From: a virus
Virus record (IMG/VR): IMGVR_UViG_3300037067_022550
Length of the DNA: 64,000 nt
Strand: one strand, 5' to 3'
In this document: one piece after another, positions 801 through 54,828 of the stretch
How the letters are laid out: each line of letters starts with the position of its first letter
Position numbering within the stretch: position 1 is the first letter of the stretch
Program-made: the position numbers and the translations under genes
The notes under the pieces: model-generated
What the model was told of the DNA's origin: nothing
Seen by the model: only the letters and a program-made list of their open reading frames with translations
Databases searched by the model: none

Positions 801-1391
801 ATGCCATCAGGATACACAGCAGAAATAGAAAAAGGAATTAGTTTTGAAAGATTTGCCCTTAATTGTTCAAGAGCTTTTGGTGCTTTAATTTCAATGAGGG
901 ATGATCCTATGGATACTCCCATTCCAGACAAAATAGAACCAAGTGATTATCATTTTAAAGAATGGCAAAGAGCCAGAAAAGATTACGAATTGGCAAAAAA
1001 AATTACTTTAAAAAATGCAAAAGAATTAGCAAAAAATGATTATGAAAATGCAGTAAAATACAACAAGAAAAGCATTGCTGAAAAAAATGCTTTAAAAATT
1101 AAATATGAACAAATGCTTTCTAAAGTAATGAAATGGGTTCCTCCTTCAAAAGATCATGTTGCTTTTAAAGATTTTATGATAGACCAAATAAAAAAGTCAA
1201 TAGATTGGGATTGTGATACTAAATACAATAAAGATCCAGTATTGAAGTCTGCAAAAGAATGGCTTAAAGAAAAAATAGAAAGAAATAAAAATGATATAGA
1301 ATACCATTTTAAAAATCACAAAGAAGAATTAGAAAGATGTGCTAATAGAACAAAATGGATCCAAGATTTAAAAAATTCATTGAATGTTTAA
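801..1391 (+). CDS. hypothetical Lys-rich protein, first gene of the + strand operon
   Basis: Strong SD AAAGGAGAAAAGTT before the ATG. 196 aa with no motif recognised. Confidence 0.5.
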   Translation: MPSGYTAEIEKGISFERFALNCSRAFGALISMRDDPMDTPIPDKIEPSDYHFKEWQRARKDYELAKKITLKNAKELAKNDYENAVKYNKKSIAEKNALKIKYEQMLSKVMKWVPPSKDHVAFKDFMIDQIKKSIDWDCDTKYNKDPVLKSAKEWLKEKIERNKNDIEYHFKNHKEELERCANRTKWIQDLKNSLNV

Positions 1392-1422
1392 TAAATTAAA
1401 ACACAATAAATTGAGATATAAA

Positions 1423-2100
1423 ATGAAACCAACATTTTTGCTTACCAGTGGAGGAACTAAAGTCAAGATTGATATGGTGAGATCAATAACTAATATGTCT
1501 AATGGAACATTTGGCAGTAGAATTGCAGAGCATATTTTATTTTATGGCTATAAATTATCTTTTTTACATGCAAAATATTCAAAAACTCCAGAAAGATTGA
1601 TTGGAGGAGCTGCACTGTCAGAAAATTATGTTCCTTTGGATTTTGTTACATTTGAAGACTATGAAAAGAGTTTAAACGAAGAGCTAAAAAAGAAACCGGA
1701 CATCATTATTCTTGCAGCTGCTGTTTCAGATTATGGTGTTGAAAACTATATTGACGGTAAAATTCGTTCAAATGATGCATTGGTCATTAGATTAAAACCT
1801 TTACCAAAATTAATTAGTCAAGTCAGGGAGAAATGCCCTTCTTCCATTATTTGTGGTTTTAAACTTTTAGTTAATTCCACTGAAAAAGAGCTGAGAGAAG
1901 CTGCTATTGAATCTCTATTAAAAAATAAACTTGATTTAGTTGTTGGGAATGATCTAAGAGACATTAAAGCAGGAAAACACAAATTGTTAATAGTTGAAAA
2001 TAAAAGCGATAGTGTTGTTTCTACTACATATGAAAAATATTTACCAGAAGTAGTACTAGATAAATGCATGGAACATTGGCAATTAGGAGTATTGAGGTGA
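1423..2100 (+). CDS. coaB: phosphopantothenate--cysteine ligase (CoaB domain protein)
   Basis: LLTSGGTKVKIDMVRSITNMSNGTFGSRIAE and ILAAAVSDY match the CoaB nucleotide-binding motifs. Start chosen at MKPTF (nt 1423) rather than the ORF-track start at 1384. Confidence 0.7.
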   Translation: MKPTFLLTSGGTKVKIDMVRSITNMSNGTFGSRIAEHILFYGYKLSFLHAKYSKTPERLIGGAALSENYVPLDFVTFEDYEKSLNEELKKKPDIIILAAAVSDYGVENYIDGKIRSNDALVIRLKPLPKLISQVREKCPSSIICGFKLLVNSTEKELREAAIESLLKNKLDLVVGNDLRDIKAGKHKLLIVENKSDSVVSTTYEKYLPEVVLDKCMEHWQLGVLR

Positions 2101-2750
2101 AAAAAAATTTACTAATTGGTTTTACTGGAAGTGTTGCTTCAATCTTATATGAAAAGATTTGCAAGTCTTTTTATAAAGAATATAATGTTAAGGTTGTAAT
2201 GACAGAATCATCTAGACAATTTGTAAATGATACTGTTTTAAATGATATGGAAATAAAAGTTTTTTCAGATTATGACGAATTTTATGAACCTATTAATTTT
2301 GTTAATTCAACAGAAATGGTATTGAGATTAGATAATAAAAATGGAAGATACTGTAACAAAAATGACCCCATTCTACATATTCAACTTAGAGATTGGGCTG
2401 ACTGTTTACTAATTGCTCCTTGTTCTGCTAATACATTGGCTAAAATTTCCAATGGCATTTGTGATAATTTGCTTACATCAATTGTAAGAGCATGGGATTT
2501 CTCACTTAAAAAACAATTGCCTTGTAATAGTAATAAAAAAATTATTATTGCACCAGCTGCAAATTGTAAAATGTGGTGTCATCCAATTACACAAGAACAT
2601 ATTGATAAAATTGGGAAATGGGGAATTTGTGTTATTGATCCTGTTGAAAAGAAGCTAGCTTGTGGAGAAACTGGAATTGGGGCCATGGCAGACATTAGCA
2701 CAATTGTTCATACTGTTAAACAATATTTTTCTAATGAAACGGAACAATAA
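2097..2750 (+). CDS. coaC: phosphopantothenoylcysteine decarboxylase flavoprotein (CoaC / HFCD family)
   Basis: LLIGFTGSVASI, IAPCSANTLAKISNGICDNLLTS, IIIAPAAN and ACGETGIGAM motifs. AGGAG lies 7 nt before a GTG start at 2097, which overlaps the coaB stop as GTGA. Confidence 0.7.
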   Translation: MKKNLLIGFTGSVASILYEKICKSFYKEYNVKVVMTESSRQFVNDTVLNDMEIKVFSDYDEFYEPINFVNSTEMVLRLDNKNGRYCNKNDPILHIQLRDWADCLLIAPCSANTLAKISNGICDNLLTSIVRAWDFSLKKQLPCNSNKKIIIAPAANCKMWCHPITQEHIDKIGKWGICVIDPVEKKLACGETGIGAMADISTIVHTVKQYFSNETEQ

Positions 2751-2753
2751 AAA

Positions 2754-3785
2754 ATGTCAACAATTAAAATATATGATTGTTCTAATTCTGAAGAGAGACC
2801 CATTCATAGAAAATCAAGTCTTTGCCCTTTTATGAATGATATTTGCAGTGATTTAATGGAATATGTTGCCAAAGAAAAATCAGAACAATTTGAATATGTT
2901 ATAGATCCTGTAGATGCCGATGTTATATTTACTAATGATGTTTATCCCCAAAGCATACTTGATTTAGGAAAACCTACGGTTAAAAGAATGGATGGAGTTT
3001 TTTGGCAAAAAGAATTTCAAGACAGAAATAAAAAATATTTACAAGCTGCATATAACTCTTCTAAAATTATTTTTATTTCTAAATATAGTCAAGAATGTTT
3101 TTATAATTTATACCATTGTTTATATAATTTATACCCATTTTGTGATTTTAAAAGTAAATCCAAGGTAATTCTTAATGATGCTCCAGAAGACATATTTTAT
3201 CCACGTTGGGGTAGATTTTGTCTGCCAAAACCAATACACCAAATTACCTTTGCAGCTTGTGTTTCAAATTGGGAAAGAAAAGAAAAGAGATTTAATGATT
3301 TAATTAAGTTTGCAAAAATATGTTCAAATATAAAAGATATAGACATTTATATTAAATTAATTGGGGAATGTAGCCATAAATTACCTTCAAATGTATGGGC
3401 TAATGGATATTGCGAAAACAGAAAAGATATTGCAGACATATTAAGAGTTTCAGATGCTTTTATAAATTTATCTTTTAAAGATGCTGCCCCAAAAACAGTT
3501 TGTCAAGCGATTAGATGCGGATTGCCAGTACTCTATGCCAATTCAGGTGGAGTTGGAGAAATTGTTGGAGAATATGGAGTGCCAATATTTGATAATGAAA
3601 AAGAATTTCAAGCAGTTTATGAATTAAAAGAAAAAGATATTTATTTGTCATTAAATAGTTTTATAGAAAAAATATATGTTCTTCAAGAATCTTTACTTGT
3701 CAAACAAGATCCTTTTCAAAAAGAATTTATTTCTTACAAAAAAACACTTGACAATTACCTATCTGTTTTTTCAGAAGTGGCTTGA
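2754..3785 (+). CDS. glycosyltransferase (GT4-like C-terminal motif)
   Basis: The C-terminal CGLPVLYANSGGVGEIVGEYGVPIFD resembles the GT-B group-1 donor-binding motif. The rest is not recognised. Confidence 0.4.
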   Translation: MSTIKIYDCSNSEERPIHRKSSLCPFMNDICSDLMEYVAKEKSEQFEYVIDPVDADVIFTNDVYPQSILDLGKPTVKRMDGVFWQKEFQDRNKKYLQAAYNSSKIIFISKYSQECFYNLYHCLYNLYPFCDFKSKSKVILNDAPEDIFYPRWGRFCLPKPIHQITFAACVSNWERKEKRFNDLIKFAKICSNIKDIDIYIKLIGECSHKLPSNVWANGYCENRKDIADILRVSDAFINLSFKDAAPKTVCQAIRCGLPVLYANSGGVGEIVGEYGVPIFDNEKEFQAVYELKEKDIYLSLNSFIEKIYVLQESLLVKQDPFQKEFISYKKTLDNYLSVFSEVA

Positions 3786-3848: not shown

Positions 3849-4844
3849 ATGAAAAAAATGAAGTTAGAAGAAATTGGATTTTATACTCTTAACGATAAAC
3901 GTGCAATTAACTTGAGCGATAATTCTCCAATGCAGAGATGCGAAATGCTTTTAACAGGCAATTGCAATTTTTCTTGTCCTTATTGTAGGGGATTTAAGAA
4001 TTTTAGCGAAAAGTGCGGAACAATTTCAAGAAAAACAGCCTTAATGGTTCTTGATATTTGGATTAATGATGGACTAAAAAATGTAAGGTTTTCTGGTGGA
4101 GAACCAACATTATATCCTCACTTATTTGAATTGGTAGAACGCTGCAAAAAAGGCAATGTTTCCCACATTGCAATTTCTAGTAATGGTTCTGCTGATACGG
4201 ATGTATACAAAAAATTAATAGACTTGGGAGTAAATGACTTTTCTATATCATTAGATGCTTGCTGTTCATCCTTTGCTGATAAAATGGCAGGGGTTGATGG
4301 TTACTTCAATAAGGTAACAAATAACATTAGGACGATATCAAAATTAACTTACGTAACTGTTGGTGTTGTTTTAAATGAAGCCAATATTGATGAAGTTATA
4401 AAAATAACAAAATTTGCAGATGAATTGGGGGTTTCTGATATTAGACTTATTTCTTCTGCCCAATACAATAGACTATTGGATCACGTTAAGATTATAGACA
4501 ACGATATATTGGATAGACACCCTATTTTAAAATACAGGATAAACAATGTTAAGAAATATAAAAATGTAAGAGGAATTTCAGAATTGGGTTGTAACCGTTG
4601 CTATATGGTTATAGATGATTCTGTTGTAGCTGGTAACGGAGACGATGCCTGGCATTTCCCTTGTGTAATCAATTTAAGAGAAGGCGGAAAAGCAATAGGC
4701 AGAGTTGGACCAAATATGAGAAAAGAAAGAATAGAATGGTTTAAGACCCATAATTCTTTTAGTGACCGTATATGTAGGACAAACTGCCTGGACGTTTGCC
4801 AAGATTACAATTGCAAATGTATGGAACTAAACAAAAATTTTTAG
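3849..4844 (+). CDS. radical SAM enzyme (MoaA-like core, Cys-rich C-terminal domain)
   Basis: CNFSCPYC (CX3CX2C) and GGEPTLYP motif. Cys-rich C-terminus CNRCYMV...WHFPC. SD AAGGA precedes the start. Confidence 0.65.
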   Translation: MKKMKLEEIGFYTLNDKRAINLSDNSPMQRCEMLLTGNCNFSCPYCRGFKNFSEKCGTISRKTALMVLDIWINDGLKNVRFSGGEPTLYPHLFELVERCKKGNVSHIAISSNGSADTDVYKKLIDLGVNDFSISLDACCSSFADKMAGVDGYFNKVTNNIRTISKLTYVTVGVVLNEANIDEVIKITKFADELGVSDIRLISSAQYNRLLDHVKIIDNDILDRHPILKYRINNVKKYKNVRGISELGCNRCYMVIDDSVVAGNGDDAWHFPCVINLREGGKAIGRVGPNMRKERIEWFKTHNSFSDRICRTNCLDVCQDYNCKCMELNKNF

Positions 4845-6431: not shown

Positions 6432-6766
6432 TTTTCAAATTTCTCCAGTAGTTCCTTTAGGAAAATCTTAAAAGCACCAGAAATGTTGATAGCATGTTTT
6501 TCCCTCAACTTTTCTATCATTGTGTATTCTTCTTTATTTACTCGGAAGTTGAATTGTGTTTGATTTTTAATATATTTTGTTTTCATGTATAGTTATTCTG
6601 CACAAATGCCTTTAAAACCTTTATTTATTTTGTTATTTTTTATCTTGACATTTATAGGTCCTTTGGTAGTTTTTACTTATGTCCTTATTCAATTGATTTG
6701 AAATGTAGATATACTATAGAAAAAAATAGGAATAAAATTTTTGTGTATGGTTGGAAGAAAATAATT

Positions 6767-6973
6767 ATGAATAAAACTACAAATCAAAAAATTATTAATG
6801 CCATTAAAGTTTGGCAAACTAATCCGTTTTTACATCCTTTAACTTGTGGCAATGATAGTAGACATAGAAATCTCGAACCGTTTGACGATAATGGTATTAT
6901 TAAACTTAAATGTATAGATTGTGATTATATTCAAGATTTTATTCCTGAATGTGTATCAGAATTTAAGCACTAA
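6767..6973 (+). CDS. small Zn-ribbon protein
   Basis: CGND...CIDCDY Cys pairs. Start moved to the internal ATG at 6767 with GGAAG upstream (the ORF track used a TTG at 6698). Confidence 0.35.
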   Translation: MNKTTNQKIINAIKVWQTNPFLHPLTCGNDSRHRNLEPFDDNGIIKLKCIDCDYIQDFIPECVSEFKH

Positions 6974-7030
6974 AAAAATACGTCATGCAATGGTTGGTCT
7001 GTTAAATAAATATAAAATTAGGAGAAATCA

Positions 7031-7498
7031 ATGAGCGAGAATAGCTATTATTATGGTTATACAATTATAGGATGTCGCATAGATAACAAAGACATGGAAA
7101 AATTAATTAAAAAAGAGACGAATAAAAACAAAGTACAAAGACGTGGATGTGACCATGAAGTTCCCGAATCAGCACTTTTTTGTTCTTTATGCGGTAAAGC
7201 AAGAATTGTTAATTTTTTCAAAGAATTTACGAAACATGATCTTCTTGAAAAATTTGAAAAGGACGGTTTAAATTACGTTTTAACTACAGATAATTATAAT
7301 TGTTTTGTGACATTTTCTAAAAAATATATTGCTAGTACTGGAGATATTAATTACTATAGTAGTTTTAATATGATTAATATTCCATCAGAAATTGAACTAA
7401 TAGAACTTAAGAAAACACTTAAAAATAAATTAGAACCTTATGGACTTTGGAATGAATCCAATTTCAATATATGGGCTGTTGGACGTTGTTCCTGCTAA
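7031..7498 (+). CDS. hypothetical Cys-containing protein
   Basis: SD TAGGAGAAATCA before the ATG. CDHE...CSLCG motif. Confidence 0.4.
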   Translation: MSENSYYYGYTIIGCRIDNKDMEKLIKKETNKNKVQRRGCDHEVPESALFCSLCGKARIVNFFKEFTKHDLLEKFEKDGLNYVLTTDNYNCFVTFSKKYIASTGDINYYSSFNMINIPSEIELIELKKTLKNKLEPYGLWNESNFNIWAVGRCSC

Positions 7499-7546
7499 AT
7501 AGTTCTTGAAATTAATTATCATTTTCTGCTTTGTTTTTCTTTTTGT

Positions 7547-8056
7547 TTGTATAATAATTTAAAGAAAGGAAAGGTAATTATGAAATTTCAATGGGGATGG
7601 TGTGATTTATGTGATTCTTCATTTGTTTATTGCCCTAAATGCGGCAATAATTGTTGCAGTGGTACATATGGGAAAATTAATGATCAAACATGCGATGTTT
7701 GCGAACTAGCTTATCAATATCAACATTTGGCTATGGAAACAAAAACAGAACCAAGTAAGGAATATGTTGAAAAAAACCCCCCATCAAAAATACCCCATTG
7801 GTTTTATGCAGAATGCAAAACAATTTCAAAAATATTAGATATGCCTAAAGAAGAAAAACTAAAGCATATTAAAGAACACCCAGAAGAACACAAACATTGC
7901 TATAATGAATTAATATGCTGTTGTTTTATAGATGAAAAAGTAGATGATGAATTAATAGAAGCTCATAATAATATTCCGGAATATAATGTTCCAAAAAAAT
8001 ACTTAGAAGAAATAGAACTACTTGATAGGATTTTTTCGAACGGCGAAAAACACTAA
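7547..8056 (+). CDS. hypothetical Cys-rich (Zn-binding) protein
   Basis: SD AAAGGAAAGG upstream. Multiple CxxC pairs (CDLCD, CPKCG, CDVCE). Confidence 0.4.
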   Translation: MYNNLKKGKVIMKFQWGWCDLCDSSFVYCPKCGNNCCSGTYGKINDQTCDVCELAYQYQHLAMETKTEPSKEYVEKNPPSKIPHWFYAECKTISKILDMPKEEKLKHIKEHPEEHKHCYNELICCCFIDEKVDDELIEAHNNIPEYNVPKKYLEEIELLDRIFSNGEKH

Positions 8057-8080
8057 TTAAAATTTAATGAAATAAAATAT

Positions 8081-8386
8081 ATGAAAATAAAGGGAATTTG
8101 GGAAACAAGAAAAGTTTGGATTGATGGCGAATATCTTGATCCAATAAATAGTCAGAAAGTATATAATCATTCTCCAGATGGTCATTGTTGGTCTTATTCT
8201 GGATCTGGTCCATCACAATTAGCTTTATCAATTTTGTTGTATCATTTTCCAAAAGAAAAGGCTATTATATGGTATCAGGAATTTAAGAGAGATGTTATAG
8301 CTAACCTTCCTGCTACTGATTTTGAACTTGATATTGATTTGGATGAATGGATAAAAACAAAACAAAATGAGTCAGTGAAAATTTGA
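8081..8386 (+). CDS. hypothetical protein
   Basis: 101-aa ORF. Preferred over the overlapping low-complexity antisense ORF 8064..8252. Confidence 0.35.
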   Translation: MKIKGIWETRKVWIDGEYLDPINSQKVYNHSPDGHCWSYSGSGPSQLALSILLYHFPKEKAIIWYQEFKRDVIANLPATDFELDIDLDEWIKTKQNESVKI

Positions 8387-8389
8387 TCA

Positions 8390-9121
8390 TTATTTTGGTA
8401 AAGAATGATTATTTAACTTTTTCATTAAAGAACTGCTCAATTTGTTATTTAAATAATCAGTGTAATATTTGTTGGCAGTAACTGGCACTGGTTGTTGACG
8501 AATTTGATTTGGCTTTTTATACCTACCTCTTGTGAACCTATCCCAAGCTTGCATAACAGCCGTAGTTTGACTTGCCGGTGGTATGTCTTTTGCTGGATTT
8601 TTTATTTTATTAGATCTTATTGCTTTTATCCAATATTCGTCATTTTTAGTAATATTGGGAACAGCCGTAGACGGAGTTGATGTTTGAGCTACAGGTTGTT
8701 GCCCCTGGACTTGATTAGAAGGCTGTGGCTGTACTGGAGCTTTATTAGGAAGCTCTTGAGTAGTTGACTGTGGTTCATAAGCGTTAACTTGTTCAACAAA
8801 ACCATTAACAGTTGAATTTATTGTATCTTGTAATTTTTGAATAAGAGAAGCTATGCCTTTATATTCAGGAAAATTTTTCAAGTAACCCATTGCAGCACTA
8901 TTAGACTTATTAATAGTGGTATTGAAATCCCATATTTGTTTTACTAATTTATTTAACCAGTTTTCTAAGTAATCTATTGAAGCAGCAGGCATTTGAAATG
9001 TTTGTGCTGTCTTTAATATTTTTTTGCTGCTATTACCCAAAATAACATTTTTAACAATAGATTCTATTTCTTTATTAGATAAATTTAAAAATATTGAATT
9101 AGCATATGTTGTAATATTCAT
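8390..9121 (-). CDS. hypothetical protein with Q/P-rich linker
   Basis: 243 aa with a central low-complexity PQ-rich segment (QPQPSNQVQGQQPVAQ). Confidence 0.45.
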   Translation of the reverse strand: MNITTYANSIFLNLSNKEIESIVKNVILGNSSKKILKTAQTFQMPAASIDYLENWLNKLVKQIWDFNTTINKSNSAAMGYLKNFPEYKGIASLIQKLQDTINSTVNGFVEQVNAYEPQSTTQELPNKAPVQPQPSNQVQGQQPVAQTSTPSTAVPNITKNDEYWIKAIRSNKIKNPAKDIPPASQTTAVMQAWDRFTRGRYKKPNQIRQQPVPVTANKYYTDYLNNKLSSSLMKKLNNHSLPK

Positions 9122-9196: not shown

Positions 9197-11914
9197 CTAT
9201 AATCTCCAATAAACAAAACCGTTTTTAATGCACTCTTCTTTATCATAGAGACCTTTTATATCTATAATAATAGGAGGATGAGAAGACATTTCTTTGAGTT
9301 TGTTTAATGGATATTTTTCTTTAAACATGTTGTGCTTAACAGCCACAATAATAGCTTCATAGGGCTTATTTAAACACAAATCATTATAATTTATAAGTGG
9401 GATATTATATTCTTTATATACTCTATTTATATCTGCTTTGGGATCATAAACAAATGGATTGGTATGATATTTTTTTAATTCTTTGTAAATATCCCCAATT
9501 CTTGAATTTCTTATATCACTTATATTTTCCTTAAAAGTAATGCCCATAATAAGAATATTAGCACCATTAATTTTTTTACCTAATTCTATTAATTTTTTAA
9601 TAGTATTTTCTGCTATATATTTTCCCATATTATCATTTGTTCTTCTACCAGACAAAATTACTTCTGGATGATAGCCCAATATTTCTGCTTTATAAGTAAG
9701 ATAATATGGATCAACGCCGATACAATTGTGAGAAATTATTCCAAAATCCGTAACAATAGTTTTTGTTTTTTCAACTTCTATGGAAAAAACTTCTTGCTCA
9801 TTATTTTCAATAAAAACTTCTTTTACTGGAACTAACCATAATCCATCTGAAAATTCATATTTAATAAGTGGATTTCTTCTGCAATTATTTATATGATTAC
9901 CTATCTTTAAATAATTTTTATCACCCAAAAGTGGAGATATTTTAGATAATATTTTCTGACCACCCAGCAAAGTCAAATGATTTACTTTCGGATTAACTTT
10001 ATTAATATAGGTAGAATAGTGTATTCCATTACTAAGCAATATATAGCAGATTTGGTTAAACATAACTTTACTAGAAGAACTAAAAGTCATTACACAACAA
10101 TTAAAATTATCTCTATTATCTTGCTTTAAACTACCGTCACCTCTAAAAATTCCTGACAAAATAGATAAACATAACTTTTTGTTGTATAAAATGAGAGATG
10201 GAATATTTTTTTCATAACAATTACTTCCACATTTAAAAACTTCTTTAATTAAAAATCCCAATATATTAGAAGAAATTTTAACCTGAATGCAATGGTCTTT
10301 CTTATTATGCCAAATTGAATAAGATATTCCTAATTTTTTAGCAATAGATATTACATCATCAATATATTGCCGTTCGTTTTCATTAAAAGTAAATCTAGTT
10401 CTTATAGAGTTATCTTTTGAAATACATCCCTCTGACAAATAATATCCTATAAATCTGGAAAAATATTCATCAATTTCAATAATATTAGAAATTTTATTAA
10501 AAGACGGGCCTTTGCCTGTAACTAAATAAATATTATCTCTAGAAACTGGCATACTTTTGTTTTTTTCTAGTTCTATAAAAACTTTAAGCGGAAGATAATC
10601 CCATTTAAAATAATTGTCTGGTTTTATTGTTTTTGATTTTTTTAATCCAAATATTTTTTTATAATCTATCCACTTCCCACTTTTTAATTTAACTCTTGTT
10701 TTTGAAATGAGACTATCGGGAATAACATTAATTAAATCAATGTTTGTTGATGTTTGTTCTTGTGGTAAATCCTCATTATAAAATAAGGGTATTTTATCGC
10801 CGACAGCAATATTTTTAGCATGTTTAACTATTAACTTTTCGTTTTCAAAAACAAGTAAGGGATGTTTGTCAGTTACAGATATTTTATGGTTTTTTTCGGT
10901 TGTTACAGTAACTATTTTGTCATAGGTAGCTTTTGAGCATCCAGAAATTTTACTAAATAATAATTTTCGCGAATCAACATCAAAAGAAAGAATTTCATCA
11001 GAATTTTCTTTTTCAAATCCATTGACATATTCTTTAATGGTTTGAGTTTTAATGATATTATTTTTTCTAATAGTAATGAGATGATTTTTAGTAAAGCAAT
11101 GGCCTCCTACAAGCCCAGGTTCATATTTGTGGAAATTCCATTTTGTTCCAGCAGCAGCTAAAACATCTTGGGTGTCTATGTTCATCTTGTGAAAAATCAA
11201 AGCTAATTCATTTACAAGAGCAATGTTTAAATCCCTTTGTACGTTTTCTATAACTTTAGCAGCTTCTGCTGTCCTGATATTTGGAGCCATATGTATTTTT
11301 GCTTCAATTACACTACCATATAAATCATAAATAAACTTTGCTGTTTCTTCATCATCTCCAGAAACTATTTTATTTGTATTTTTAACACAATGAACTTTAT
11401 CGCCAGGATTTATTCTTTCTGGAGAATATCCTACATGAAAATCTTTTTTCCAAACATAGTTTTCTTTAGAAAGTAAGGGGACACATATTTCTTCTGTTAC
11501 GCCAGGATAGACGGTAGATTCATAGATCACCAATATTTTCTTTTTTGTTTCAGAATAATTAAAAGTAGAAATAGTTTTTGTAGCAGATATAATTGGGGTT
11601 AAATCTGGTTGTTTATCTTCATGAATGGGAGTAGGAACAGTAACAATAAAGACATCCATATTTCTTAACATAGCAATGTCTTCTAATGAGATATATTTAA
11701 TGTATGATGCTTGTAATTCTTGTATGGAAACATCTTCATTTCTATCATAATTATTTTTTAATTCTTCAATTCTTTCCTTATAATTATCAAAACCATAAAC
11801 ATTATATTTTTTAGAAAACAAAATTGCTAATGGCAACCCTACATACCCAAGTCCCACGATGCAAATATTTTTTGTTCCAGATCCAATCAAAAAATCAGAA
11901 ATATTATAATTCAT
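9197..11914 (-). CDS. UDP-N-acetyl-D-mannosamine / UDP-sugar 6-dehydrogenase (WecC/TviB-like) interrupted by a 458-aa intein
   Basis: N-terminal Rossmann motif GLGYVGLP. N-extein ends ...LVGGH and C-extein begins CIGVDPYYL, restoring the GGHCIGVDPYY active site. Exteins are 272 + 175 aa. Confidence 0.7.
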   Translation of the reverse strand: MNYNISDFLIGSGTKNICIVGLGYVGLPLAILFSKKYNVYGFDNYKERIEELKNNYDRNEDVSIQELQASYIKYISLEDIAMLRNMDVFIVTVPTPIHEDKQPDLTPIISATKTISTFNYSETKKKILVIYESTVYPGVTEEICVPLLSKENYVWKKDFHVGYSPERINPGDKVHCVKNTNKIVSGDDEETAKFIYDLYGSVIEAKIHMAPNIRTAEAAKVIENVQRDLNIALVNELALIFHKMNIDTQDVLAAAGTKWNFHKYEPGLVGGHCFTKNHLITIRKNNIIKTQTIKEYVNGFEKENSDEILSFDVDSRKLLFSKISGCSKATYDKIVTVTTEKNHKISVTDKHPLLVFENEKLIVKHAKNIAVGDKIPLFYNEDLPQEQTSTNIDLINVIPDSLISKTRVKLKSGKWIDYKKIFGLKKSKTIKPDNYFKWDYLPLKVFIELEKNKSMPVSRDNIYLVTGKGPSFNKISNIIEIDEYFSRFIGYYLSEGCISKDNSIRTRFTFNENERQYIDDVISIAKKLGISYSIWHNKKDHCIQVKISSNILGFLIKEVFKCGSNCYEKNIPSLILYNKKLCLSILSGIFRGDGSLKQDNRDNFNCCVMTFSSSSKVMFNQICYILLSNGIHYSTYINKVNPKVNHLTLLGGQKILSKISPLLGDKNYLKIGNHINNCRRNPLIKYEFSDGLWLVPVKEVFIENNEQEVFSIEVEKTKTIVTDFGIISHNCIGVDPYYLTYKAEILGYHPEVILSGRRTNDNMGKYIAENTIKKLIELGKKINGANILIMGITFKENISDIRNSRIGDIYKELKKYHTNPFVYDPKADINRVYKEYNIPLINYNDLCLNKPYEAIIVAVKHNMFKEKYPLNKLKEMSSHPPIIIDIKGLYDKEECIKNGFVYWRL
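9725..11098 (-). mobile_element. intein with LAGLIDADG homing endonuclease domain, inserted at the catalytic Cys of the dehydrogenase
   Basis: Begins with Cys (CFTKNH), ends HN, followed by the +1 Cys. LAGLIDADG-like blocks FIGYYLSEGCISKD and LSGIFRGDGSLKQ. Boundaries computed from codon positions. Confidence 0.7.
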
Positions 11915-12315
11915 TTTTTTAATCTTTCTGTTAATAAATCTCTTTCATGAGCAATATGCCTTCTTTTTGTTAAATCTCTATCGTATTTTTCTCTTTCTTT
12001 TGGAGACAACTTTAAATATAAATTAGCATCAAAATCTAATGATTTGTGAAACTCATTTTTTCTAATCCACAATCTATCCCAAAAAAGAATTAAATTATTA
12101 AAAAAACAATTAAATATTCTATTAAATTTAAAAGACCTAGAGTTCCATCCCACCCACGCATCGCTTTCAGATAAACATTGAGGGCCTCTTGATGAACAAC
12201 TACGGCACATAACGCTACACCATTCCTGATGATCTCCACCAACTCCCCAACCAATACCCAAAAACAATGATCCGCAATGGGGGCAGGGTTTTCTCATGTC
12301 TATAAAATTATTCAT
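11911..12315 (-). CDS. Lar-family restriction-alleviation-like Zn-ribbon protein with a long C-terminal extension
   Basis: KPCPHCGS...CSVMCRSCSSRGP...AWVGWNSRS resembles the Lar (PF14354-like) pattern. Overlaps the topA end and the dehydrogenase start. Confidence 0.4.
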   Translation of the reverse strand: MNNFIDMRKPCPHCGSLFLGIGWGVGGDHQEWCSVMCRSCSSRGPQCLSESDAWVGWNSRSFKFNRIFNCFFNNLILFWDRLWIRKNEFHKSLDFDANLYLKLSPKEREKYDRDLTKRRHIAHERDLLTERLKK

Positions 12316-14299
12316 CTTTTTCAATAAATTTGCACTTTGGGAAAGCAGAACAACCTATAAAAGTGTTCCCGCTTTTTTTGGCAATTCTTTCAACTAGATC
12401 TGCACCACATTCAGGGCATTTTCTGCCGACCTTTTTAAATGTTTTCTTTTCTTTTAAAGAAAAAGAACCGTCTTCATTTTTTTGAAAAACGCTTTTACAT
12501 CCTGGATATTTGTTACAGGAATAAAATATTCCATACATTCCACTAACTTCAACTATGTCACCTTCTCTACAAACAGTGCATTTTTGTCCAACCATCTTTT
12601 GTTCTTTTTTTCCCATGGTATTTTCTTTTGCTCCTTTTATTTCATTTGTTAATACATTATATACATTTTGAACAATATCTAAATATGTTTTTTTACCATC
12701 TGCAATTAATTCTATGTCTTCTTCCAAACCTGCAGTAAATTTAACATCCATAAAAAAATCTTTAAATCTTGGATTGAGATAATCACAAATCTTCATGCCT
12801 AATTCTTGTGCTACAAATCCTCCGTTTTTGCCTTTTTCTTTTGTAACATAACCTTTATCTTGAATGCTTTTAATAATTGTGGCTCTGGTAGAAGGTCTTC
12901 CTATGCCGTCTGCTTCCATTTTTACAATCAAACTTCCATCATTATATCTTTTAGGAGGCTGTGTAGTATGTTTTGTTTTTTTAATATCCTTTAGATTAAG
13001 TTTCTCACCTTCATTAGCATTAGGCAAAATTTCTTCTTCTGTTTTAGAATATTTATAAACTTTAGACCATCCATCAAATCTAATGGTTTGTCCCTTTGCA
13101 ATTAATTCGTGTTTAGAATCTGTTTTAACTTTATAGACAACCGTATCTACTACCATTGGAGACATTTGACAGGCTAAAAACCTATCTCTTATTAATTCAT
13201 ACATTTTTTTATGTTCTGAATCTAATCCGCTTCCTTCATCTTCAATATGAGTTGGACGAATGCACTCGTGAGCTTCTTGAGCAGCTGCTGAAGACTTTTT
13301 AGCGTAGGAATTCGGTTTAGAAGGCAAATATTTAGAATCAAATTTTTCTTTTATAAAACCTATTACAGAATCCAATGCTTCTTGAGAAATAGTATAAGAA
13401 TCTGAACGAATATAACTAACCTTACCTATCTCATAAAGATGTTGAGCTATTTGCATGGTTTTGGTTGCATTGAATCCAAATAAAGAAGAACAAGAAGATT
13501 GCAATGAAACAGTATCAAAAGGTGGTTGAGCTTTCCTTTCTTTTGTTTCTCTTTCTATTTTATCTAATGTAAATGTAGATTTTTTTAGTGCTTCAAAAGA
13601 ATTAGTGGCTAGTTTTTCATCAATAAATCTATTTTCTTTTTCTTTAGTTACTACTTTTGCCCAAAATTCCCCATTATCATTTTGCAAAAGACATTCTACA
13701 TACCAAAAATCAGTTGGGATAAATGCTTTTATCTCTTTTTCTCTTTCACATATAAACTTTAAAGCTATGGATTGCACTCTACCTGCAGAAGTTCCTTTGC
13801 CAACTGAAAACCAGAGTACCGGAGAAACTTTATAACCGATTAGTCTATCTAAAACTTGTCTTGCTTTTTGAGCATCCACAAGATTATTATCATCATTTAT
13901 ATCTCTTCTATTTTTAATGGCAGTTTCAATTGCTTTTTTAGTTATTTCATTAAAAGAAATTCTAAAACACTTTTTCTTGTCTTTTTCACTTAAAAGATCA
14001 TATATATCCTTAGAAATTCTGGAACCTTCTTTATCTGGATCTGATGCTAAATAGATTAATGGGCTTTTGCCAGCATATTCTTTTATTTTCTTTACAACAT
14101 CTTTTTTTCCGCTAATGATTTGGCAAGTAGGAATAAATCCGTTTTTTATATCAATATTTAATCCCTTCTTAGGTATTTCCATTATGTGGCCGACTGAGGC
14201 TATAACATCATAGTCTGTCCCTAAAAAAGATTTTATCTTTCCACATTTATTAGGCGACTCAACTATAACTAGTTTATTACTCATTTTTTTTATCTCCAA
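12308..14299 (-). CDS. topA: DNA topoisomerase I (type IA) with two C-terminal C4 zinc ribbons
   Basis: TOPRIM N-terminus LVIVESPNKCGKIKSFLG. Zn ribbons CTVCREG...CNKYPGCKS and CPECGADL...CSAFPKCKF. Confidence 0.8.
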   Translation of the reverse strand: MEIKKMSNKLVIVESPNKCGKIKSFLGTDYDVIASVGHIMEIPKKGLNIDIKNGFIPTCQIISGKKDVVKKIKEYAGKSPLIYLASDPDKEGSRISKDIYDLLSEKDKKKCFRISFNEITKKAIETAIKNRRDINDDNNLVDAQKARQVLDRLIGYKVSPVLWFSVGKGTSAGRVQSIALKFICEREKEIKAFIPTDFWYVECLLQNDNGEFWAKVVTKEKENRFIDEKLATNSFEALKKSTFTLDKIERETKERKAQPPFDTVSLQSSCSSLFGFNATKTMQIAQHLYEIGKVSYIRSDSYTISQEALDSVIGFIKEKFDSKYLPSKPNSYAKKSSAAAQEAHECIRPTHIEDEGSGLDSEHKKMYELIRDRFLACQMSPMVVDTVVYKVKTDSKHELIAKGQTIRFDGWSKVYKYSKTEEEILPNANEGEKLNLKDIKKTKHTTQPPKRYNDGSLIVKMEADGIGRPSTRATIIKSIQDKGYVTKEKGKNGGFVAQELGMKICDYLNPRFKDFFMDVKFTAGLEEDIELIADGKKTYLDIVQNVYNVLTNEIKGAKENTMGKKEQKMVGQKCTVCREGDIVEVSGMYGIFYSCNKYPGCKSVFQKNEDGSFSLKEKKTFKKVGRKCPECGADLVERIAKKSGNTFIGCSAFPKCKFIEKDE

Positions 14300-17130: not shown

Positions 17131-17790
17131 CTATACATCATTAAACAATGTTTTAGGTTCTTCATTTATGTTTTCAAACACATCATATTGTTTGTAACTC
17201 CAAGAAAATAAAGATGTGAAACTAAACCATATTTCCTGATAATTTAAATTATTTTTTGCAAGAATTTTATCTTTAACTGGAACATCAGAATCTTGTTTAT
17301 AGCACCAATCTAATATTATCCAATTATTATCCGTCTCTCTGCAATAAGTTACATAACAGTGACCTTCTTGTTGACCATTGTTGTCTTGTACTAATCCTGC
17401 ATTAACTCTTACTCTCCACCAGGGAACTCCGTTGGAACACAATAAACTTGCCATAAGTAAAGAACCGTCTTCGCAATCACCTCTTTTTAAATATAGTGTT
17501 TCATTAGGAAATTGCCAAAATTCATTATATCCCCAAGAATCTTGATCATACTCGTATTTGCAATTTTTGACAATATACTGTTGACAAACTAAAGCAAAAT
17601 CATCATTTTTTGGAACATATAAGTTTTCTTTTTTTATTAAATCAATAAGAACATAATCGTTTGTCCAAAACATTTTTCTAACATCAATTGGTATCTTGCC
17701 AGCAAAATTAGGTATTTGCCTACCACCATAAATTATTGGTGTTTTGGGATGCTTGTTATTCCAATATTGTTCAAGTTCTTGTTCGTTCAT
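17131..17790 (-). CDS. transglutaminase-like / papain-fold cysteine peptidase domain protein
   Basis: Candidate Cys-His-Asp triad: GDCEDGSLLMASLL, GHCYVTY, ILDW. Immediately downstream of the fibre gene. Confidence 0.4.
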   Translation of the reverse strand: MNEQELEQYWNNKHPKTPIIYGGRQIPNFAGKIPIDVRKMFWTNDYVLIDLIKKENLYVPKNDDFALVCQQYIVKNCKYEYDQDSWGYNEFWQFPNETLYLKRGDCEDGSLLMASLLCSNGVPWWRVRVNAGLVQDNNGQQEGHCYVTYCRETDNNWIILDWCYKQDSDVPVKDKILAKNNLNYQEIWFSFTSLFSWSYKQYDVFENINEEPKTLFNDV

Positions 17791-17793
17791 GCT

Positions 17794-20700
17794 TTATCTT
17801 CCAATAAAATGTCCTTTAAATCTTGAAGATCCATTGGTTCCCCCACCAGATATTGTGTCAGCAGCATTCTCAAGAACTCTAATAATATACCAGTTTGTTT
17901 GTCCATCGTCATAAAGAACAGCATTAATTCTAGCATCGTGTGCGTTAGCTAATGCTCCAATTCCACCTGACTGTATATTATTGGTTGAAGATGAATTACA
18001 TCTACTTAAATAAATAGTTAAAGCGTGATTGCCTGCAATTGTAATTTCAGCATTAACTTCATACCAACCAGCTATAGGAGGAATAAAAGCATTTTTGACA
18101 TTATCATAACACCCTGAAACAGATCCGTTTTCAATAAAAGGGATTGTTGTTATTTTATTGTTTGGAATTGTCCATCCATTGGTAATATAAGCATCAAAAG
18201 CTGCTAAAGCATTCATTGCCATATTGCTAACAGTATTAATATTATTCTGTAGATTAGTATCAGCCATATGCAAAGCGTTACTAGTAACATTAATATTGCC
18301 CTGCAAATTTGTGTCTGCTGCATGTAAAGCGTTACTAGCAACATTAATATTATTCTGTAGATTTGTGTCTACTGCATGTAAAGCATTACTAGCAATATTA
18401 ACATTTTCCTGTAAATTTGTTTCAGCAGTACCTGCCCTATTTATTTCAATGTTCAAATTAGATTCCGATGCATAATATGAAGGTAATTGACTTCCAAGAA
18501 TATCTGGTTTTGTTATCTGTATGTTTATAGAACCATTTGTTGCACTTACATTACACCATCCAATAAATTGAGAAATATTAGTTCCCGTCGGTTCAACATT
18601 AGTAATGCCCCCTGCAATAAGAGGACTTACATAAAGTTTATCGCCAGCAGTCCAAGATGTGGTATCCATTATATATTCAGCTCTTCCCAATCTAAGGATC
18701 ATACCTCTATTACCAGCAGAAATTCCGCCAATACTTGTAACTATACCAAAGCATGGCATTGTACTTAAAGAATCTGCTTTTGCTCTTTTAACATAATGTG
18801 ATGTGTCACTTATTCCAGAAGTTATATAAATTAATTCGCCTCGTTGTAAAGTATTTGTTTCAGAGTTATATACTGTTAAAACAGAATCTCTGCCTATTCT
18901 AGTTTGATTTCCTTTTGAATCTGTAAAATATGGTCTTTCAAATCCGCTTACAGCATCAATAAAAATTCTAAGGTGACCAGAAGCAGGATTAACTTGTTCA
19001 CCAGTATTTTCAGCTGACATATCAAGAGCCCCACCCAATAGCAATGTTCCGTCAGAATGTGGTGTAATATATATAAAATTGCCAGCATAGCCACTATTAG
19101 TATATCTACGGGGATAATTTGTTAAACTGCTTGATAAAATTGTGTTTATAATAAAAACAGAATCTTTATCATGTGTTGCTGCACCCCAATACACATTTGA
19201 AGGATTACCATCAGATATAGATACCCTATTGTCTTTAAAAGATATGCCACTTTCTCCAGACTTTCCATTAGCTGAATAGCCTAAAAACAAATTGCAATTA
19301 TTTGTTGTTAACAATGATAAAATATTAAAAACCCCTTCATATCCAATTCTTCCTGTAGCTCTATTATTATATGCAATTATAATATTATTCGAATATGAAA
19401 GACCTGCTGTATTAAGCTGAATTCTAGAAATACCACCTTGCACTGTATTTATTCCACGATATGAACTATCATGATTATATGTTATACTAATGTTGTCATT
19501 TTCATCTTTAGAGTTAATAATACTAGAACTATTAAATGATGAAAATTTAATTAATCCGCCAATTGATTCTCCATCTGTACTTTCAAATATTTGAGCATTG
19601 CAAACAGATTCAGAACCATTAGTTGGAATAATATTAAGTTCATTATAAGTGGTTGAATAAATTTCAACATCACCACGTTTTAATATAATCACGCTTTTAT
19701 TTGTAATATCATTGTCATAATCAGAACGCAAATAACAAGAATTAACAGCCATATAAGCATTATCAGCACCAGCATCTGCTATAATTGCAGGAGCATTTGT
19801 TTGAAATACAGTTATAAAAGTCAGTTCAGTTCCATTACTATCTGTATAATTTGTTGTCCAATTTACTGTTCCTTTAATTACAGTTGCCTCAATTGAGTTT
19901 GCATTAATTCCTATATAATTCTTCATCGTAATGTTTTCTGGATAAATTCCTGGACTTACTGTTACTATAAAACGATTAGAGTCTGATGCCACAATAGCAG
20001 CATCATCAATTGCAGCTTGTATGGTTTTATACGGTAAAATTGAACTCTCAAGTAAAGCTGTTGAATCATTTCCACTATCTGAATCAACATAAGCCCTGTT
20101 TGCGTTAATCTTATTAATTGTTGAATCAACATATCCTTTATTAGCTGCCTGATCGTCTGTGGCAGGATTACCCATACCAGATGGCAATATTCCTCCTGTA
20201 ACAGGACTTTTTAAAAGAACTTGATATAAACTTGGAACAGAACTGCCACTACTTCCCCCACCTGTAGATATGGTTCCTCTTCTTATCATAAATCTACGAT
20301 CTAACCAATAGTCTGACTCTTCTCTTAAACTAATATCTCCCCCTTGGAAAATATAGGCAGTACACTTTGGAACATAAGGTTCAAAACCAGGAGGCAAAAC
20401 TGGATCATCACCAGCTAAAGCAGATGCATAATTAGTATATTCTATTTGAGGATAAACCCATTCCATTGCAGGATTACCTTCTTGAGATAAAAATACTCCT
20501 CTATACCAATTACTAACTGTGCAATTAACTATATTTGTGCCATTATCCCATTTATCAATGGGGAGTTGATTAGTAACTGAATAGACCCATGTTGCTGTAT
20601 TTGTATGATAATATGTAACTAAAACAGTTGCAGGGGAAACAAAACCATAATTTGTTAAATTTTTAGACAAATGAACATTTCTTTGAGACATATTTTGATA

Positions 20701-21480
20701 TTCTATACCACCAACTTCTATAATTTGATTTAAATTTGTTCCAATAGCTGCATAATATAAGCCATCAACAACCAAAGAAGGCATTACGGCTGCATGTCCA
20801 GCATCAGTTTTTAATGGAAGATCTCCGGCTGGTATAATAGGTGATACATGCATAATTCTACCAAATCCCGTAATAAATCTACAAATAGCCATATTGTTGC
20901 CCGTATCAGGTCTCGTACCAGTAGTCCATGAAACCACATTTGGATTTGATAAACGCCAATATGCATAATTTATAGCATTATCCACCAGTGTGTTAGAACC
21001 AGCAGCCAGATGATAATAACCGTTTGTGGGATCATATACGTCTCCTTCATTCCAAGAAACATTTAAATCAGCAATTGGAGAAATATTATATGTAAAAACA
21101 GGGATATCTCTTGCTGCTCCTCTTGAACTGGTGTCTTCTATGAATTTATCTAAATAATAACCACCTAATGCACCTATTTGTCTAAATCCTTCACTGCCTA
21201 AAGTTTTAGAAGCTATTATATTACTGTATGTATTAATATTGTTTTGTAAGTTAGTATCAGCAGAAGTGGATCTAACAATTTCGTTATCAATCTTAGCACC
21301 TAAATTAGTTTCAGCGGCAACAGCGCGAATTGATTCAGCTTCAACTTGTTCAATTACATAATTAGTAGTGGCAACATTACCATCTGAGGAACCGTCATGA
21401 ATAACAGTTCCAAAAGATAAATTACCAAACAACAAAACAATAAAAAACAATAATATTATGATGTTATATTTAAGTTTCAT
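17794..21480 (-). CDS. large fibre-like protein with signal peptide, ETNL repeats and a C1q-like C-terminal domain
   Basis: 1228 aa. N-terminal signal/TM MKLKYNIIILLFFIVLLFG. Four 18-aa repeats (NALHAADTNLQNNINVAS). C-terminal FIPPIAGWYEVNAEI fits the C1q GxYxF signature. SD GGGGAGAG upstream. Confidence 0.55.
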   Translation of the reverse strand: MKLKYNIIILLFFIVLLFGNLSFGTVIHDGSSDGNVATTNYVIEQVEAESIRAVAAETNLGAKIDNEIVRSTSADTNLQNNINTYSNIIASKTLGSEGFRQIGALGGYYLDKFIEDTSSRGAARDIPVFTYNISPIADLNVSWNEGDVYDPTNGYYHLAAGSNTLVDNAINYAYWRLSNPNVVSWTTGTRPDTGNNMAICRFITGFGRIMHVSPIIPAGDLPLKTDAGHAAVMPSLVVDGLYYAAIGTNLNQIIEVGGIEYQNMSQRNVHLSKNLTNYGFVSPATVLVTYYHTNTATWVYSVTNQLPIDKWDNGTNIVNCTVSNWYRGVFLSQEGNPAMEWVYPQIEYTNYASALAGDDPVLPPGFEPYVPKCTAYIFQGGDISLREESDYWLDRRFMIRRGTISTGGGSSGSSVPSLYQVLLKSPVTGGILPSGMGNPATDDQAANKGYVDSTINKINANRAYVDSDSGNDSTALLESSILPYKTIQAAIDDAAIVASDSNRFIVTVSPGIYPENITMKNYIGINANSIEATVIKGTVNWTTNYTDSNGTELTFITVFQTNAPAIIADAGADNAYMAVNSCYLRSDYDNDITNKSVIILKRGDVEIYSTTYNELNIIPTNGSESVCNAQIFESTDGESIGGLIKFSSFNSSSIINSKDENDNISITYNHDSSYRGINTVQGGISRIQLNTAGLSYSNNIIIAYNNRATGRIGYEGVFNILSLLTTNNCNLFLGYSANGKSGESGISFKDNRVSISDGNPSNVYWGAATHDKDSVFIINTILSSSLTNYPRRYTNSGYAGNFIYITPHSDGTLLLGGALDMSAENTGEQVNPASGHLRIFIDAVSGFERPYFTDSKGNQTRIGRDSVLTVYNSETNTLQRGELIYITSGISDTSHYVKRAKADSLSTMPCFGIVTSIGGISAGNRGMILRLGRAEYIMDTTSWTAGDKLYVSPLIAGGITNVEPTGTNISQFIGWCNVSATNGSINIQITKPDILGSQLPSYYASESNLNIEINRAGTAETNLQENVNIASNALHAVDTNLQNNINVASNALHAADTNLQGNINVTSNALHMADTNLQNNINTVSNMAMNALAAFDAYITNGWTIPNNKITTIPFIENGSVSGCYDNVKNAFIPPIAGWYEVNAEITIAGNHALTIYLSRCNSSSTNNIQSGGIGALANAHDARINAVLYDDGQTNWYIIRVLENAADTISGGGTNGSSRFKGHFIGR
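18215..18430 (-). repeat. in-frame tandem repeat, 4 copies of a 54-nt unit inside the fibre gene
   Basis: The unit catgtaaagcgttactagcaacattaatatt... recurs with a 54-nt period. It also generates the spurious antisense ORF 18224..18475. Confidence 0.5.
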
Positions 21481-26794: not shown

Positions 26795-26930
26795 TATTTA
26801 TTCTCCTTAATTGTATATCTTATTATATATTACCAGAATTATTATACAACATCCTACAAAAATATACAATTTATTTTACCATATTTTTTATCCAATAGGA
26901 TTCTCCCCTTTAATCCAAGAAACATATTTC

Positions 26931-54824: not shown

Positions 54825-54828
54825 ATTT

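Follow-up and report, generated by a model that had tools for sequence, protein, structure and literature searches.

An intein with a LAGLIDADG endonuclease domain before the catalytic cysteine of a nucleotide-sugar dehydrogenase from a probable jumbo phage

The stretch of viral DNA described here, 64,000 nt long and referred to below as the window (IMG/VR record IMGVR_UViG_3300037067_022550), carries an open reading frame (ORF) for a nucleotide-sugar dehydrogenase, interrupted by an intein. Very probably, this is a class-1 intein provided with a LAGLIDADG homing endonuclease, which interrupts a TviB/WbpO-like enzyme just before its catalytic cysteine, is expected to splice, and was gained by the phage lineage to which the window belongs. 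An earlier note, made from the sequence alone, had resolved the ORF into a 272-aa N-extein ending in LVGGH, an insert running from a Cys to a final HN followed by a +1 Cys, and a 175-aa C-extein starting with CIGVDPYYL: all coordinates were reproduced, and the two LAGLIDADG-like blocks that it had noticed in the insert could be located (Table 1).

Table 1. Position of the precursor, of its parts and of the other window genes discussed in the text (a caret marks the splice junctions)
Feature	Position (nt)	Strand	Remarks
Precursor ORF, 905 aa, 104.0 kDa; nucleotide-sugar dehydrogenase split by intein	9197..11914	-	ORF translation
N-extein, aa 1-272, C-terminal end LVGGH	11099..11914	-	Pfam UDPG_MGDP_dh_N, 3.1e-31
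Rossmann NAD-binding motif VGLGYVG, N-extein	11837..11857	-	
K-x-x-x-N motif KVIEN, N-extein	11243..11257	-	
Intein, precursor aa 273-730, 458 aa, 52.7 kDa, pI 9.2	9725..11098	-	starts CFTKNH, ends GIISHN
N-terminal splice junction LVGGH^CFTKNH (block A)	11081..11113	-	Cys1 codon at nt 11096..11098
Block B, SVTDKHPLLV (T-x-x-H motif)	10850..10879	-	His-Pro invariant in the intein family
LAGLIDADG motif 1, FIGYYLSEGC, intein aa 216-225	10424..10453	-	acidic residue Glu; GYY.SEGC family-invariant
LAGLIDADG motif 2, ILSGIFRGDGS, intein aa 313-323	10130..10162	-	acidic residue Asp; G..RG family-invariant
Blocks F/G and C-terminal junction, EVFSIEVEKTKTIV…GIISHN^CIGVDPYY	9701..9793	-	penultimate His present
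C-extein, aa 731-905 (175 aa) and stop; starts CIGVDPYYL	9197..9724	-	Pfam UDPG_MGDP_dh_C, 9.6e-18
Small Cys-rich ORF, repeated C-x-x-C motifs	11911..12324	-	between topoisomerase IA and dehydrogenase
Topoisomerase IA	12308..14299	-	upstream neighbour, same strand; synteny anchor
Second small Cys-rich ORF, repeated C-x-x-C motifs	7547-8056	+	other side of the region
CoaB-like (DFP) gene	1384..2100	+	
CoaC-like (Flavoprotein) gene	2064..2750	+	separate, overlapping the CoaB-like ORF
GT4 glycosyltransferase	2754-3785	+	
Transglutaminase-like cysteine protease gene	17131..17790		adjoins the 1228-aa ORF
1228-aa ORF	17794-21480	-	no Pfam or PHROG match
Free-standing LAGLIDADG_2 homing endonuclease, 376 aa	25664-26794	-	PF03161, 1.2e-32; between a 369-aa ORF and LpxR
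LpxR lipid-A deacylase homologue	26811-27815	+	6e-66
Arabinose-5-phosphate isomerase-like (KdsD-like) gene	54147-54878	-	phrog_5670, 4e-36

Judged from its sequence and from its predicted fold, the insert is a canonical class-1 intein, in which a HINT splicing domain is split by a monomeric, two-motif LAGLIDADG homing endonuclease domain. Profile scores exceed the cut-offs for Pfam Intein_splicing (PF14890; 59-60 bits, cut-off 35.8) and LAGLIDADG_3 (PF14528; 48.8-51.4 bits, cut-off 22.5), as well as for NCBIfam TIGR01445 intein_Nterm (31.2-32.6 bits, cut-off 24.5) and TIGR01443 intein_Cterm (16.6 bits, cut-off 15.6); partial matches of 90-91 bits are also found with the NCBIfam models of the intein-containing DNA polymerase II large subunit and Tes. 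When PDB sequences are searched, the insert retrieves PI-PkoII at 2.2e-9, with both LAGLIDADG motifs aligned (GYYVSEG, GYFIGDG), and the Pab PolII mini-intein (2lcj), whose match covers block B and, though with a low score, blocks F/G too.

An AlphaFold model of the intein, based on a 19-sequence alignment, reached a predicted local distance difference test score (pLDDT) of 83.7 and a predicted template modelling score (pTM) of 0.86. In a Foldseek comparison of this model with the PDB, the best matches are all intein homing endonucleases: PI-PkoII (E 2.5e-23), followed by TliVMA, PI-PfuI, PhoVMA and PI-SceI. I-DmoI and I-Tsp061I match the endonuclease core (target TM-scores 0.65-0.75, E 1e-6 to 1e-11), while the TFIIB and PolII mini-inteins (5o9j, 7oec, 2lcj) match the HINT splicing part. 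The order of secondary structure elements fits the pseudo-dimeric alpha-beta-beta-alpha-beta-beta-alpha LAGLIDADG fold.

The hallmarks of class 1 are complete: Cys1 (Cys273 of the precursor), invariant in 19 out of 19 aligned family sequences, and the block-B motif (VTDKHP, intein aa 75-80) are followed, at the C-terminal junction, by a penultimate His, by Asn as the last residue (nt 9725..9727) and by Cys in position +1 (nt 9722..9724). All residues invariant in the family are kept, namely Cys1, the His-Pro of block B, GYY.SEGC, G..RG, the Ser/Glu of block F and HN^C.

Evidence on the nature of the insert also comes from genomes that do not contain it. When the spliced exteins are used as query, the nearest matches carry no intein (P0121, 78% identical; P0122, 77%; P0123, 63%), while the best intein-bearing homologues, of Hydrogenothermaceae type, show an extein identity of 58-60% only. 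Six intein-free relatives are syntenic with the window, with extein identities of 63-80%: L098, L099, L100 and three from a Joint Genome Institute (JGI) metagenome scan, L103, L104 and L105 (76-80%). In L098, L099 and L103 the gene order is collinear with the window (432-aa ORF, small ORF, topoisomerase IA, small ORF, dehydrogenase); L100 and L104 are short contigs, featuring part of the same order. Topoisomerase IA is 72-82% identical, at the amino acid level, across these relatives, and the small Cys-rich ORF, between topoisomerase IA and dehydrogenase, 56-62%. A homologue of a 243-aa ORF is found in L098 and L105 too, the transglutaminase-like gene in L099 and L103, Dam in L103, a 250-aa ORF and a methyltransferase in L099.

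All six relatives read, without interruption, …KWNFHKYEPGLV(G/S)GH^CI(G/S)VDPYYLT…, where the caret indicates the insertion point. At the DNA level, the empty site of L100 is GGTGGTCAC^TGTATCGGCGTTGAC, and its duplex sequence spanning the insertion point is CCTGGTTTGGTAGGTGGTCAC^TGTATCGGCGTTGACCCCTATTAT; the occupied site of the window is GGAGGCCAT^(1374-nt intein)^TGTATCGGCGTTGAT. Within this phage lineage the intein is found in the window and in a near-identical twin only, the ENA contig ERZ27247363:k141_727378 (L001/L101, 99.9% identical), and it is a presence/absence polymorphism. Since collinear relatives carry the uninterrupted allele, a mobile insertion gained by the lineage of the window appears the likely origin, rather than repeated loss.

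The insert might, alternatively, be an accessory domain of the dehydrogenase, specific to one lineage, an alternative that the earlier note had itself named. The precisely empty sites of the syntenic relatives, which read GGH^CIGVDPYY, led to its rejection, and the same verdict comes from intein and LAGLIDADG models scoring above curated cut-offs, from a fold matching intein endonucleases, and from canonical C…HN^C boundaries in 110 of 111 same-site homologues. No evidence was found in favor of such a domain, the probability of which is negligible.

Removal of the insert leaves a 447-aa sequence (51.3 kDa), featuring the three UDPG_MGDP_dh domains: PF03721 (8.9e-32), PF00984 (1.1e-24, continuous over positions 1-93 of 94) and PF03720 (2.8e-18). 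In the precursor, the central domain is divided: its first three quarters are in the N-extein, where the Pfam UDPG_MGDP_dh match is broken off at profile position 74 of 94, while the C-extein has the catalytic Cys as its first residue, then the Asp of C-x-x-x-D, the rest of the central domain and the UDP-binding domain. The alignment of the exteins, proposed in the earlier note as a check, is continuous once the insert is removed, both with the family models and with two solved structures, Staphylococcus aureus Cap5O (3ojl; 3.8e-49) and Pyrococcus horikoshii 4r16, and runs ungapped through VGGHC. The GGHCIGVD loop, which is formed only upon removal of the insert, aligns with VGGHCLAVD of Cap5O, and is contained in a GGHCIGVDPYY sequence identical to that of the intein-free relatives, as had been anticipated. 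The insertion lies, as also proposed, between His272 and the Cys aligned with GGHC of Cap5O and of other family members. Counted on the alignment, the Cys of Cap5O facing the +1 Cys is residue 269 of the tagged chain, which we take to be native Cys258, the catalytic nucleophile; this alignment argues that the +1 Cys of the intein is the catalytic Cys of the dehydrogenase. The Rossmann motif, K-x-x-x-N (KVIEN) and the Asp of C-x-x-x-D are all present.

The assignment of the enzyme to the WecC/TviB type finds support in its second part only. The spliced sequence scores 362.9 bits on the general TIGR03026 model (cut-off 189.8) and 441 bits on the TviB equivalog NF011729, below its cut-off of 592; on the WecC equivalogs NF008286 and NF040825 it scores a mere 175.7 and 180 bits (cut-offs 459 and 750). 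It is TviB/WbpO-like, not WecC-like, and it may best be called a TviB/WbpO-like UDP-N-acetylhexosamine 6-dehydrogenase. Because the TviB score is under the equivalog cut-off, no single substrate is named among UDP-GlcNAc, UDP-GalNAc and UDP-ManNAc; relatives are named "UDP-N-acetyl-D-galactosamine dehydrogenase" in source annotations.

Splicing of the precursor is likely, as suggested by the complete set of family-invariant residues, and its steps may be drawn from established intein chemistry. Cys1 would undergo an N-S acyl shift, the thioester would be handed to the +1 Cys by trans-thioesterification, cyclization of Asn730 would release the intein, and an S-N shift would create a native peptide bond, restoring GGHCIGVDPYY. 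The expected products are a 51-kDa enzyme, with junction peptide …LVGGHCIGVDPYY…, and a free 53-kDa endonuclease. One and the same cysteine would act in two roles, first as the +1 nucleophile of splicing and then as the thiohemiacetal/thioester nucleophile of the enzyme, the active-site loop of which cannot form until the intein is gone. That the enzyme is active only after splicing, as the earlier note had it, is a sound inference: the precursor is expected to be inactive because 458 residues part the catalytic Cys from the GGH turn. Upon co-infection, the freed endonuclease would in turn cleave alleles that lack the intein, and the intein would be copied into them by repair; endonuclease-driven homing of this kind, or recombination with an intein-bearing allele, is the most plausible route by which the intein was gained.

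A number of observations weigh against parts of this picture. The intein agrees with its family at 59 of 73 conserved columns (0.81; the family averages 0.93, with an sd of 0.046), and only two of the 75 members have a lower value. Substitutions in the endonuclease half include L288F, F340S, L352Y, F391L and K395N, the Lys being 99% conserved; K395N and F340S are among those falling at positions more than 90% conserved in the family. Compared to most relatives, about 14 residues are missing after LAGLIDADG motif 2, and about 18 in the N-terminal region. Because of these substitutions and missing residues, the endonuclease may be decaying. Block F features a Ser at a position occupied by Asp in many class-1 inteins. 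The closest intein is only about 40-43% identical, so that no donor is identified, and the G+C content of the insert (25%) is like that of the C-extein (26%; 29% for the whole window). The Ser of block F is read as a family trait, not as decay, because it is invariant in this intein family and is apparently shared by the Pab PolII intein, according to the low-scoring C-terminal stretch of that alignment.

Taken to their extreme, such signs might indicate a decayed remnant, unable to splice, by which the gene is effectively inactivated. The 14 deviations at conserved columns, the deletions relative to most relatives, and the location of five out of 19 differences from the ENA contig within a 51-bp part of the intein, two of them changing an amino acid, are in keeping with this possibility. 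Most deviations, however, are conservative (Y/F, L/I, R/K, T/S), and Cys1, T-x-x-H, HN, the +1 Cys and all family-invariant positions are kept. The frame is also open throughout: at 25% G+C about one codon in 11 should be a stop, and 458 open codons would occur by chance with a probability of about 2e-20; the other two reading frames contain 30 and 78 stops across the insert. In the exteins, finally, none of the three domains and none of the catalytic motifs is lost, and identity with intein-free relatives is 77-78%. A dead remnant is therefore considered very unlikely.

A milder version, in which the intein splices while its endonuclease is inactive, so that the element is "stuck" late in the homing cycle, immobile and vertically inherited, is a real possibility, rated somewhat below an even chance. 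The substitutions at conserved positions gather in the endonuclease half (F340S, L352Y, F391L, K395N), the hairpin after motif 2 is shortened, with pLDDT values of 64-75 at residues 331-350 of the model, and two mini-inteins at the same site, described below, show that endonuclease loss does occur in the family. On the other side, Glu of SEGC and Asp of RGDG, the two catalytic acids, are kept together with their invariant surroundings, the endonuclease domain has its full length and an open frame and is modelled with confidence as two LAGLIDADG half-domains, and the intein-free target alleles present in the lineage are the condition that maintains an active endonuclease. For the intein of the window, an active endonuclease has, on these sequence features, a roughly even chance.

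The differences between the window and its ENA twin, 19 substitutions in 21.9 kb, are clustered: three within 7 bp (4787-4793), five within a 51-bp part of the intein (10766-10816, causing K367E and E381K), ten within a 163-bp part of the small ORF (12094-12256) and one at 16306. They look like short recombination or strain-mosaic tracts, not like scattered mutation.

As to the origin of the intein, the ranks of extein and intein similarity to the window protein are uncorrelated (Spearman -0.11, p 0.37), while across all family pairs rho is 0.44. The closest inteins, P0024 and P0026 (42-43% identical), the latter from a Methanosarcinales metagenome-assembled genome (MAG), reside in exteins which are only 46-48% identical. 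The lack of correlation and the occurrence of the best inteins in distant exteins fit a horizontal acquisition, into a phage allele that was formerly empty. The idea of a recent transfer was rejected on two grounds: close donors are missing among the sampled inteins (the best identity is about 43%), and the G+C content matches that of the surrounding gene.

The earlier note had described the insertion site as classic but uncommon. The second term does not stand, and intein surveys already include the host protein: a 2010 review that cites InBase counts UDP-glucose dehydrogenase among intein hosts, and Novikova et al. (2016) list it with 10 inteins, from Euryarchaeota only. A search of 5.8 billion proteins returned more than 100 clusters, at 90% identity, of 860-950-aa dehydrogenases containing intein and LAGLIDADG domains; in the 120 best homologue clusters, on which same-site counts are based, GGH^C…[H/G]N^C is found at the same site in 111 cases (110 HN and 1 GN). 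Most of 83 sequences compared by BLAST align end-to-end with the intein of the window, at 30-41% identity. Two same-site mini-inteins of 200 aa, in 631-aa proteins (P0064, P0065), lack the endonuclease domain: the family therefore covers the whole homing cycle, from endonuclease-bearing to endonuclease-less members. A further locus, L110, gives a match longer than those in intein-free relatives, and may be another mini-intein.

Relatives of the intein are found in 174 species genomes, from both Bacteria and Archaea, by a junction-specific scan in which each species is represented by one genome. Archaeal carriers include Methanosarcinales, Woesearchaeota, Nanoarchaeia and Micrarchaeota; bacterial ones include Desulfonema magnum, where the intein is in a complete chromosome, Omnitrophota, Chloroflexota, Planctomycetota, Aquificales, Patescibacteria, Gemmatimonadota and Oscillatoria. 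Intein-bearing species genomes span G+C contents of 28-74%. With the intein alone as query, an exhaustive search gave, at E <= 1e-30, 60 representatives (50% clusters), mostly dehydrogenases of about 900 aa, together with some proteins of about 1200 aa that have a related intein at residues 190-640. The dehydrogenase is a known intein host, its intein site is probably a known one too and is common in metagenomic data, and the allele is far more widespread than in older catalogues, where about 10 copies, all from Euryarchaeota, are reported. A literature search found no paper pairing "intein" with "nucleotide sugar dehydrogenase". The possibility that intein-bearing cellular loci are mis-binned phage contigs was rejected, as none of them has other window genes.

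The whole precursor, compared by tblastn with 50,697 deposited phage records, retrieved no intein-bearing dehydrogenase: the dehydrogenases that matched lack an intein, and the one intein that did, in a portal protein, is unrelated. When IMG/VR was scanned with a single protein, no close relative appeared. An alignment-based scan of IMG/VR detected two contigs with an intein-bearing dehydrogenase, L002 and L003, which have only this gene in common with the window. In L002 (IMGVR_UViG_3300037424_002587) the intein is at the same site, in a 920-aa ORF. The same contig encodes a 764-aa ClpX (6498-8792, plus strand), apparently split by a second intein in the Walker A loop (GPTGSGK^AQPLYS…GFVVTHN^TLLCQ); the first residue of this insert is Ala, not Cys or Ser, its LAGLIDADG_3 match is weak, and a TnpB/IS605 gene is nearby.

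The window itself is probably part of the genome of a jumbo phage infecting a Gram-negative host. The ATG of the precursor shares an ATGA with the stop codon of the small Cys-rich ORF upstream. Besides the genes listed in Table 1, a NAD-dependent DNA ligase, a beta clamp, a sigma-70-like protein, a Dam methylase, two radical-SAM proteins, an R2K ATP-grasp, a DUF932 protein and a RlaP-like nucleotidyltransferase are encoded. PHROG matches include phrog_1383 "virion structural protein" (2e-37), phrog_2087, a phosphoesterase and a Nudix hydrolase; homologues of the structural protein occur in a 595-kb uncultured phage and in the jumbo phages XacN1, Xoo-sp13, FLC9 and Lak. The ENA twin extends upstream of the window, adding RtcB, RNA ligase, Peptidase_M23, a GIY-YIG endonuclease, nicotinate phosphoribosyltransferase (NAPRTase) and isochorismatase; the set made of RtcB, RNA ligase, Peptidase_M23, NAD-salvage and homing endonuclease genes is typical of large lytic phages. 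The GIY-YIG/NUMOD homing endonuclease gene (L101, 6298-6987) lies about 3 kb upstream of window position 1, adjoining the NAPRTase and isochorismatase-family genes, with RtcB, RNA ligase and Peptidase_M23 farther upstream. Judged by its profile match, the free-standing LAGLIDADG_2 gene of the window gives this genome another selfish endonuclease, independent of that in the intein. The CoaB-like and CoaC-like genes follow each other in an order which is the reverse of that of the domains in fused bacterial CoaBC.

The phage assignment is probable, not proven, because no capsid, portal or terminase gene is seen in Pfam and PHROG scans of the window ORFs, which speaks against it. The window could instead be a fragment of a small cellular genome, DPANN or candidate phyla radiation (CPR)-like, or a plasmid, and its intein just another cellular case: topoisomerase IA, the NAD-dependent ligase, the beta clamp, the sigma-70-like protein and CoaB/CoaC are genes of cellular type, and many same-site inteins are found in Woesearchaeota, Nanoarchaeia and Patescibacteria. 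Yet tRNA and Rfam scans of the 64 kb detect no tRNA gene and no Rfam family, rRNA genes are absent, and no ribosomal-protein family was found among the 34 larger ORFs screened. Most large window ORFs are without a Pfam or PHROG match, including the largest neighbours (1228, 432, 399, 387 and 369 aa), for which the two scans gave nothing. The match to a virion structural protein with jumbo-phage homologues, that to phrog_2087, the free-standing LAGLIDADG and GIY-YIG endonucleases, and RtcB with RNA ligase and NAD-salvage genes point to a large phage, and the syntenic relative L099 features a phage tail-collar domain protein along with a 2119-aa ORF. LpxR and arabinose-5-phosphate isomerase, finally, point to a Gram-negative bacterial rather than to an archaeal host. 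A cellular or plasmid origin is, on the whole, unlikely.

On the phage assignment, the dehydrogenase, the GT4 glycosyltransferase, LpxR and the KdsD-like gene may be seen as envelope-modifying auxiliary genes, and suggest that the phage remodels the lipopolysaccharide or the capsule of its Gram-negative host. A bolder proposal would have the intein now mobile in the jumbo-phage population, ferried by phages between hosts as distant as those described above for G+C content and domain of life, with splicing gated by a disulfide between Cys1 and the +1 Cys. If so, the reducing cytoplasm of a suitable host would be needed to switch on, after translation, the surface-sugar enzyme of the phage; this combination is rated quite unlikely.

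The intein host, the architecture of the intein and the expected chemistry are already known, as is, probably, the insertion site, and the current understanding of inteins is not overturned. The present analysis adds that the allele is much more widely distributed, that its setting here is probably a jumbo phage, that syntenic relatives have empty-site alleles, and that the endonuclease shows signs of a possible drift. Alleles with and without the intein, in collinear phage genomes, offer natural targets of homing, with candidate sequences in L098, L100 and L103, and a pair suitable for studies on the cost and regulation of splicing.

Among known systems, the nearest are the inteins of UDP-glucose dehydrogenase ("UDP-GD" or UDP-GlcDH, COG1004) of Euryarchaeota, reported in InBase and by Novikova et al. 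(2016), which reside in the same host protein family and, like the intein of the window, are large and contain a LAGLIDADG endonuclease. The best intein match of the present scans, in a Methanosarcinales MAG contig (L018, corresponding to P0026), is full length, 42-44% identical and located at the identical GGH^C site. The same site is used in the Methanosarcinales, Woesearchaeota, Nanoarchaeia and Micrarchaeota genomes found by these scans. The window copy differs in that its genome is phage-like and its host enzyme of TviB/WbpO type, and is at most about 43% identical to any sampled intein; surveys report the allele from Euryarchaeota only, whereas the present scans find it widely in Bacteria too.

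PI-PkoII, PI-PfuI and PI-SceI (2cw7, 1dq3, 1vde) share the same organization, a HINT domain with an inserted LAGLIDADG domain of two-fold pseudo-symmetry; Foldseek E values are, besides that of PI-PkoII given above, 2.5e-17 for PI-PfuI and about 1e-13 for PI-SceI. They differ in sequence (12-16% identity) and in host, being found in DNA polymerase, ribonucleotide reductase and VMA1. TM-scores with this class are 0.4-0.6, because the solved proteins contain additional domains and have their domains oriented differently. Outside the dehydrogenase site, the nearest relatives are the inteins of the large subunit of archaeal DNA polymerase II (DP2) and of Tes (tetraether lipid synthase), which are in other exteins and at other insertion sites, with identities not exceeding 30-33%.

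The host enzyme shares with TviB/WbpO/Cap5O-type dehydrogenases the same three domains, the Rossmann GxGxxG, K-x-x-x-N and the GGHC-x-x-x-D loop; it differs from them in scoring under the TviB equivalog cut-off and in being interrupted by an intein. Phage-borne inteins, known from terminase, portal, ribonucleotide reductase, PhoH and DNA polymerase genes, are self-splicing mobile elements within a phage gene, as the intein of the window is expected to be; those described in Campylobacter phage IBB_35 and in prophage terminases may be compared with the intein and the free-standing homing endonuclease genes of the window. Here, however, the interrupted gene is a metabolic auxiliary one, not involved in replication or packaging, and an intein in a phage gene for cell-surface sugar synthesis would widen the range of phage intein hosts.

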